From the NCBI RefSeq assembly GCF_048403405.1, contig NZ_CP183129.1: 64,000 nucleotides of DNA; one strand, given 5' to 3'. The translations under genes were made by a program, and so were the position numbers. Every line of letters begins with the position of its first letter. Position 1 is the stretch's first letter. Positions 16,047-16,374 of this stretch are shown in pieces. This DNA comes from Escherichia coli. GTDB taxonomy: Bacteria; Pseudomonadota; Gammaproteobacteria; Enterobacterales; Enterobacteriaceae. The notes beneath the pieces are model-generated. The model was not told where the DNA came from, searched no databases, and was given only the letters and a program-made list of their open reading frames with translations.

Positions 16047-16374
16047 TGGTTATATCACTACTACGCCCTTTCCAGACGGCGTATAAGAGTGCAACATGTT
16101 GAGTTTTCCGAGTGAATGGTGCATTTTACTAACCGAGCCATTTGAATCAACCAACGCAATAAAAAAGACTGGAATAATAAGCCTGTATTTATTATTCATC
16201 GCAATCGCACTCTACGGTTTTATCCTGCAGAAATGAGACTACTTCCAGCGGTTGTGGATTATCCCTGGGCGATAGTCATAGTCTTGTGTCAGGATTCACA
16301 AATGACCTGTTACCTGACATGGATATAAACACAACATAGAGTGCGGTAGTTAATCTGAATCATCTATTTTTCGG

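Follow-up and report, generated by a model that had tools for sequence, protein, structure and literature searches.

A spacer in an effector island of Escherichia coli carries a 46-codon open reading frame (ORF) that has the appearance of a gene for a small membrane protein, and the question raised by this locus is whether it is such a gene or whether its gene-like features have another origin. We report that the ORF is very probably a non-functional by-product of two relics on the opposite strand, one derived from yieH and the other from cbrC (referred to here as yieH' and cbrC').

The DNA analysed is a stretch of 64,000 nucleotides, the window, which comes from the E. coli chromosome and in which an effector island with EspY5-like, EspX3-like and EspY4 genes runs from phoU to yieH. 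In a strain that is 100% identical here, RefSeq gives the order pstCAB-phoU, 'hypothetical protein / type III effector', a pentapeptide-repeat gene on the other strand, EspY4, yieH and adeP; the names of the three island genes in O157:H7 Sakai are espY5 (a pseudogene), espX3 (also a pseudogene) and espY4. The region was matched in 1094 of 5426 complete E. coli genomes, once in each and on the chromosome in all, and all comparisons of the ORF and of the island lie within E. coli. The features concerned are the following:

13386-15905, EspY5-like effector gene (effector A), an 839-codon ORF that is intact in the window
15958-16041, no strand assigned, imperfect long hairpin, copy 1, earlier called 'paralog A's 3' element'
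16042-16076, minus strand, yieH' relic piece 1, the end of a yieH copy with its stop and the approximately 11 codons before it
16083-16151, minus strand, yieH' relic piece 2, corresponding to YieH residues 106-128
16096-16236, plus strand, the 46-codon ORF
16148-16155 (16151/16152), no strand assigned, relic junction with a tandem CAAC-CAAC, placed from alignment end points and six-frame translation
16153-16260, minus strand, cbrC' relic, corresponding to CbrC residues 14-49, with two in-frame stops
16375-17562, EspX3-like pentapeptide-repeat gene, antisense to the ORF
20328-20412, no strand assigned, hairpin copy 2, downstream of EspY4 and abutting the stop of the resident yieH
20413-21078, resident yieH

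The ORF begins with ATG, has 46 codons followed by a TGA stop and translates as MLSFPSEWCILLTEPFESTNAIKKTGIISLYLLFIAIALYGFILQK*, where the asterisk marks the stop. A preliminary description of this DNA had given the same 46-residue translation but placed it at 16095-16235, and the true coordinates, stop included, are one base higher. Its other observations agree with ours: the ORF is preceded by a weak Shine-Dalgarno sequence (AAGAG at 16085-16089, with the ATG 6 nt after it), it has a hydrophobic C-terminal tail of 19-20 residues, and it lies between the hairpin at the 3' end of effector A and the antisense pentapeptide-repeat gene. With a Kyte-Doolittle maximum of 2.45 (19-residue mean), the product would be a small peptide with one predicted transmembrane helix. 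The ORF had also been called unannotated, which is correct for RefSeq/PGAP, where no feature lies on it in the 15 annotated loci inspected or among the top matches listed from complete genomes, and incorrect for some GenBank submissions, which contain it as a 'hypothetical protein' in forms of 46, 59 and 80 aa.

Shuffling of the 469-nt spacer (40% G+C) produced an ATG ORF of 46 codons or more in 40% of cases; the length of the ORF is unremarkable and carries no weight as evidence for a gene. An ORF of at least this length with a transmembrane-like segment was present in 5% of shuffles. Within the AT-rich island itself, 7 of the 13 ATG ORFs of 40-90 aa lie above the transmembrane-like threshold and 2 of the 13 equal or exceed the hydrophobicity of the 46-codon ORF.

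The origin of the ORF is found on the complementary strand. Its AAGAG, its ATG and its first 19 codons complement yieH' piece 2, which reads VDSNGSVSKMHHSLGKLNMLHSY against VVSNGPVKKMQHSLGKLNMLHYF in YieH 106-128, an identity of 17 of 23 residues (74%). The same similarity appears in a self-comparison of the island, in which positions 16088-16151 are 83% identical as DNA to 20700-20763 in the resident yieH, and in a match of piece 2 to NCBIfam NF007854 (6-phosphogluconate phosphatase) with E = 9.2e-6 over profile positions 104-129. Approximately 250 bp of yieH are missing between this piece and piece 1, which reads ...VWKGRSSDITI* where YieH reads ...LWKARGWKITR*; tblastn matches to piece 1 are weak, and a local DNA alignment extends past the hairpin and the yieH stop to reach coding sequence. 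The NF007854 score of 25.5 bits, against a cut-off of 211 bits, does not correspond to a full-length open gene, and yieH', reduced to these two pieces, is a pseudogene fragment. A homologous antisense ORF start, MLSLPSECCIFFTGPLET, is present at 20708 in the intact resident yieH. A second accidental ORF, of 49 codons at 16050-16199 on the minus strand, overlaps the 46-codon ORF, and its middle is the frame of the yieH relic that matches NF007854.

The remainder of the ORF, codons 20-46, is the complement of cbrC' in exact codon register, such that the second codon positions of the two strands face each other. A blastn search with 16096-16380 as the query against all complete E. coli genomes (28 Gb) aligned 16152-16262 with cbrC of island-free, K-12-type genomes (75% over 111 nt, E = 2e-10). 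By tblastn, cbrC' matched CbrC 14-49 with 61% over 36 aa (E = 3e-13), and Pfam PF03691 (CbrC / UPF0167) matched it with E = 0.009, which falls short of the cut-off, as expected for a fragment of 36 residues. Having kept 36 of 195 codons, with two stops in frame, cbrC' is not a full-length open gene. The antisense strand of intact K-12 cbrC reads NAIKGTRVIN*RLLFTAIALYGFILFK and the corresponding part of the window ORF reads NAIKKTGIISLYLLFIAIALYGFILQK*; the 'transmembrane tail' thus exists, as a shadow, opposite a living cbrC gene. A derivation of the tail from the yieH relic was considered and rejected, since the DNA similarity to yieH ends at 16151 and the tail matches cbrC. The two relics lie in different frames of the minus strand and thus encode no fused protein.

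These homologies and codon registers, together with the polymorphism of the frame that is set out below, are demonstrated at the level of sequence, and the mechanism that we propose from them is as follows. The spacer between the EspY5-like and EspX3-like genes is a graveyard of core genes at a K-12-type locus (yieH-cbrB-cbrC), holding in minus-strand order cbrC' (aa 14-49), yieH' (aa 106-128), an internal deletion, the C-terminus of yieH with its stop, and the hairpin. Reading of the plus strand across the relic junction produces an accidental open frame. Its ATG is the complement of the His codon in the YieH stretch ...LNMLH..., the AAGAG likewise lies within the yieH relic, and the polar and acidic stretch of CbrC, with its central-A codons, becomes on the complement, in the same register, a run of hydrophobic codons with a central T. 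The frame is open through the cbrC part only since decay of the relic erased a TGA that stands in the antisense frame of intact cbrC. As the ORF is complementary to yieH' and cbrC', its start, its Shine-Dalgarno sequence and its hydrophobic tail are all inherited by-products. The preliminary description had allowed for a chance ORF in AT-rich DNA; this is in essence correct and can be sharpened, since the sequence is not random AT-rich DNA and lies opposite decayed pieces of two core genes.

ORFs of this kind have a counterpart in the antisense 'shadow' ORFs that lie opposite coding sequence, a class that is the subject of 'Are Antisense Proteins in Prokaryotes Functional?' (PMC7457138). The 46-codon ORF resembles them in being an open frame on the complement of coding-derived sequence, in a hydropathy that mirrors the sense strand in the same register, and in the incidental nature of its start and Shine-Dalgarno sequence. 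It differs from them in that its sense partners are dead fragments of two genes at a rearrangement junction, with no living gene among them, and in that its frame is upheld by nothing on either strand and decays freely. The locus illustrates how a persuasive 'small membrane protein' may arise from the in-register complement of polar coding sequence alone.

The preliminary description had proposed to judge the ORF by the conservation of its frame across homologous islands, and by this yardstick the ORF fails. The spacers of 12 further strains with the island, at identities of 91-97%, were aligned with that of the window, and the frame is not conserved over the 13 loci; across relatives and the protein database it takes forms of 17, 26, 46, 59 and 80 aa, and one island variant has lost it. 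The forms seen in the aligned loci are as follows:

46 aa, six loci, ORF intact
59 aa, O157:H7 and O55:H7, stop lost by a TGA to AGA change, with an altered C-terminus
26 aa, strain 18KM2445, frameshift by a 1-nt deletion in an A-run
17 aa, three strains in two lineages, one TCA codon turned into a stop, either TAA or TGA

Since the two nonsense changes at this single site differ, the 17-aa form arose independently at least twice. The divergent island of strain RMDEC465 has no yieH relic and consequently neither the start codon nor the N-terminal half of the ORF. The protein database adds the 80-aa form and further residue replacements, and among 5.8 billion proteins no homologue of the peptide was found outside E. 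coli. Among the 1089 complete genomes that carry the region, the ORF is at least 99% identical to the window form in 415, to the stop-loss form in 323 and to one of the nonsense forms in 47. A large fraction of the genomes with the island have the 46-aa ORF intact, and some annotators call it; both facts count against the by-product reading.

The variable sites are too few to discriminate between coding constraint and neutrality. In the ORF they are distributed 9:8:8 over the three codon positions, and at 0.18 they are as dense as in the flanking non-coding spacer (0.18-0.25). Pairwise dN/dS values for the ORF range from 0.17 to 2.3 and are noisy, with at most 9 differences per pair; a classification of the sites by hand counts approximately 7 changes as synonymous and 15 as non-synonymous or disruptive, which is no significant departure from neutrality and is compatible with weak constraint. 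As controls, phoU (dN = 0) and yieH (dN/dS 0.06-0.29) behaved as expected, and EspY4, at 0.5-0.7, together with the near-uniform codon-position variation of effector A, indicates that the island genes are weakly constrained and hence of less value as controls for the ORF.

Searches for functional signatures were unproductive. Neither the 46-aa nor the 59-aa form matched any family in Pfam (E <= 1) or NCBIfam (E <= 10), and a search of 15500-17000 with Rfam returned no antitoxin RNA of a described family, its two matches (snoRNA and miRNA models, E 0.5-0.8) being at the level of chance. The promoter scan found no plus-strand promoter-like site upstream of the ORF and no enrichment of such sites overall (4, against 4.1 in shuffles), and the terminator scan returned two sites, one being a sub-stem of the hairpin and the other lying within the pentapeptide-repeat gene. 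The ORF occupies a single place in each genome and has no paralogues. In Sakai O157:H7, where the 59-aa form lies at 4690406-4690585, the RIBOseq tables of novel intergenic genes (PMC5597208) contain no entry starting 46902-46907, and these tables cover a few laboratory conditions, under which an acquired island of this kind may be untranscribed. We infer from the analysis as a whole that the ORF is untranslated and functionless.

It remains to weigh the readings in which the ORF, or the strand opposite to it, has a role. The ORF could be a young, lineage-restricted small membrane protein that arose de novo, is translated in its 46- or 59-aa form and places its C-terminal helix in the inner membrane, with some modulatory function; such a reading would draw on the ATG with an AAGAG 6 nt before it, the strongly hydrophobic tail, a frame that most genomes with the island keep intact or lengthened, and the GenBank records that name it a hypothetical protein. 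It must be set against losses by nonsense, frameshift and deletion in several lineages, with no compensation seen, a C-terminus that varies by stop loss and in the 80-aa form, at least 10 different residue replacements among near-identical strains, a hairpin rather than a promoter-like site directly upstream, and absence from the Sakai RIBOseq list, and we regard it as very improbable. A related proposal, to which we would give a very slim chance, is that of a proto-gene, in which the ORF at the yieH'/cbrC' joint is translated as a tail-anchored peptide that is beginning to matter for the effector island; were this so, the de novo birth of a gene opposite pseudogenes, from their antisense strand, could be dated here. 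A type I toxin, whose translation would be checked by an antisense RNA from the opposite strand, is extremely improbable. The likeness to E. coli toxins of this type (Hok, Ldr, Ibs, TisB, ShoB, ZorO, DinQ) is one of size (<60 aa), of a single predicted hydrophobic helix and of intergenic location, and a weak minus-strand promoter-like site does lie inside the ORF (16150-16123, 9/12 matches). The ORF is unlike them in having no toxin family match, no antitoxin RNA and no paralogues, and in a frame that is unconserved and freely broken in natural strains; promoter-like sites are as frequent in shuffled sequence, and derivation as the complement of yieH' and cbrC' accounts for the whole of the ORF sequence. 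The suggestion in the preliminary description of a small membrane peptide, such as a type I toxin or a tail-anchored regulator, accordingly fails on its unconserved frame, on the family and antitoxin-RNA searches and on its antisense derivation from the two gene fragments. The ORF is unimportant as a gene candidate, and there is no case for a toxin or a regulator.

A different possibility, which is compatible with the by-product explanation, places the function on the minus strand: the EspX3-like gene could have the spacer as its 3' untranslated region and the former yieH hairpin as its terminator. No minus-strand terminator-like site lies between the stop of the EspX3-like gene (16375) and the hairpin, and the hairpin is stable, is kept in all full-length islands and is followed on the minus strand by CTTTTCGC (TTTT). 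The hairpin is also long and imperfect, its T-run is short and that of the second copy is weaker, and we consider this role less likely than not, while leaving it a place as a tentative suggestion alongside the preferred reading of the ORF as a by-product of the yieH'/cbrC' relics.

The hairpin itself, of approximately 84 nt, is found 3' of both EspY paralogues, where it abuts the yieH stop or the stop of the relic. Copy 1 has a fold energy of -37.2 kcal/mol (z = -4.5), and the two copies are 80% identical to each other; their inner stems differ, in part by compensatory changes. It may act as a terminator for minus-strand genes. We considered whether it is a dispersed repeat of the REP or MITE type and rejected this, since the hairpin, together with the yieH 3' end, occurs in exactly two places per genome, both in the island, and solely in island-bearing genomes.

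The arrangement of the relics also bears on how the island was assembled. In K-12, cbrC lies two places downstream of yieH (yieH-cbrB-cbrC), and the minus-strand order in the window, with cbrC' upstream of yieH', is the reverse of this. The truncated, stop-containing fragments of yieH and cbrC that persist beside island genes resemble the remnants of core genes known at the borders and joints of islands; they are unlike such remnants in this reversed order and in the presence of the yieH 3' end and hairpin twice. The two EspY paralogues beside the hairpin copies share a protein identity of just 32%. The paired hairpin and yieH 3' end, the inverted order and the low EspY identity together point to a duplication at the cbrCB site or to an assembly of the island there in two steps. 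An origin of the relics by simple microhomology deletion is unsupported, given the CAAC on both sides of the junction and a gene order that is inverted relative to K-12. The spacers of this EspY/EspX island contain dated remnants of the displaced yieH and cbrC, which could be used to reconstruct its assembly.

Several further observations concern the island and its surroundings. Effector A is intact in the window, but most of the other strains inspected, including O157 Sakai, have it with a frameshift, an internal stop or a split N-terminus. Its variable sites are spread nearly evenly over the codon positions (294:245:288), a pattern suggestive of selection that is relaxed or diversifying. A 29-nt stretch (13267-13295 and 17726-17754), 93% identical between its two copies, precedes each of the EspY paralogues by approximately 70-120 nt and may be a shared regulatory site; the EspY genes themselves are barely alignable despite this common stretch.

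A scan for the pentapeptide-repeat protein in one genome per bacterial species returned a single locus, on an E. coli-like contig in a metagenome-assembled genome (MAG) labelled Collinsella. This contig, JAIJJM010000244.1, is 4.4 kb long, carries the E. coli island with 97% protein identity and is filed under a Collinsella sp. MAG, a placement that is probably due to a binning contaminant.

The left flank of the island differs between lineages, as it adjoins phoU in some and yieK in others. In the window it follows phoU directly (12981-13385 compared), with the bgl operon, yieL and yieK missing; in strain 18KM2445 it lies between yieK and yieH, exactly in place of the cbrC-cbrB of K-12. On the right, E. 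coli has two deeply divergent forms of yieH: the allele of the window is approximately 80.7% identical to that of K-12, DH5a and J53, and 3114 of 5415 genomes fall within the 80-90% identity band, a divergence far above the norm for core genes. The divergent yieH allele may have arrived together with the island.
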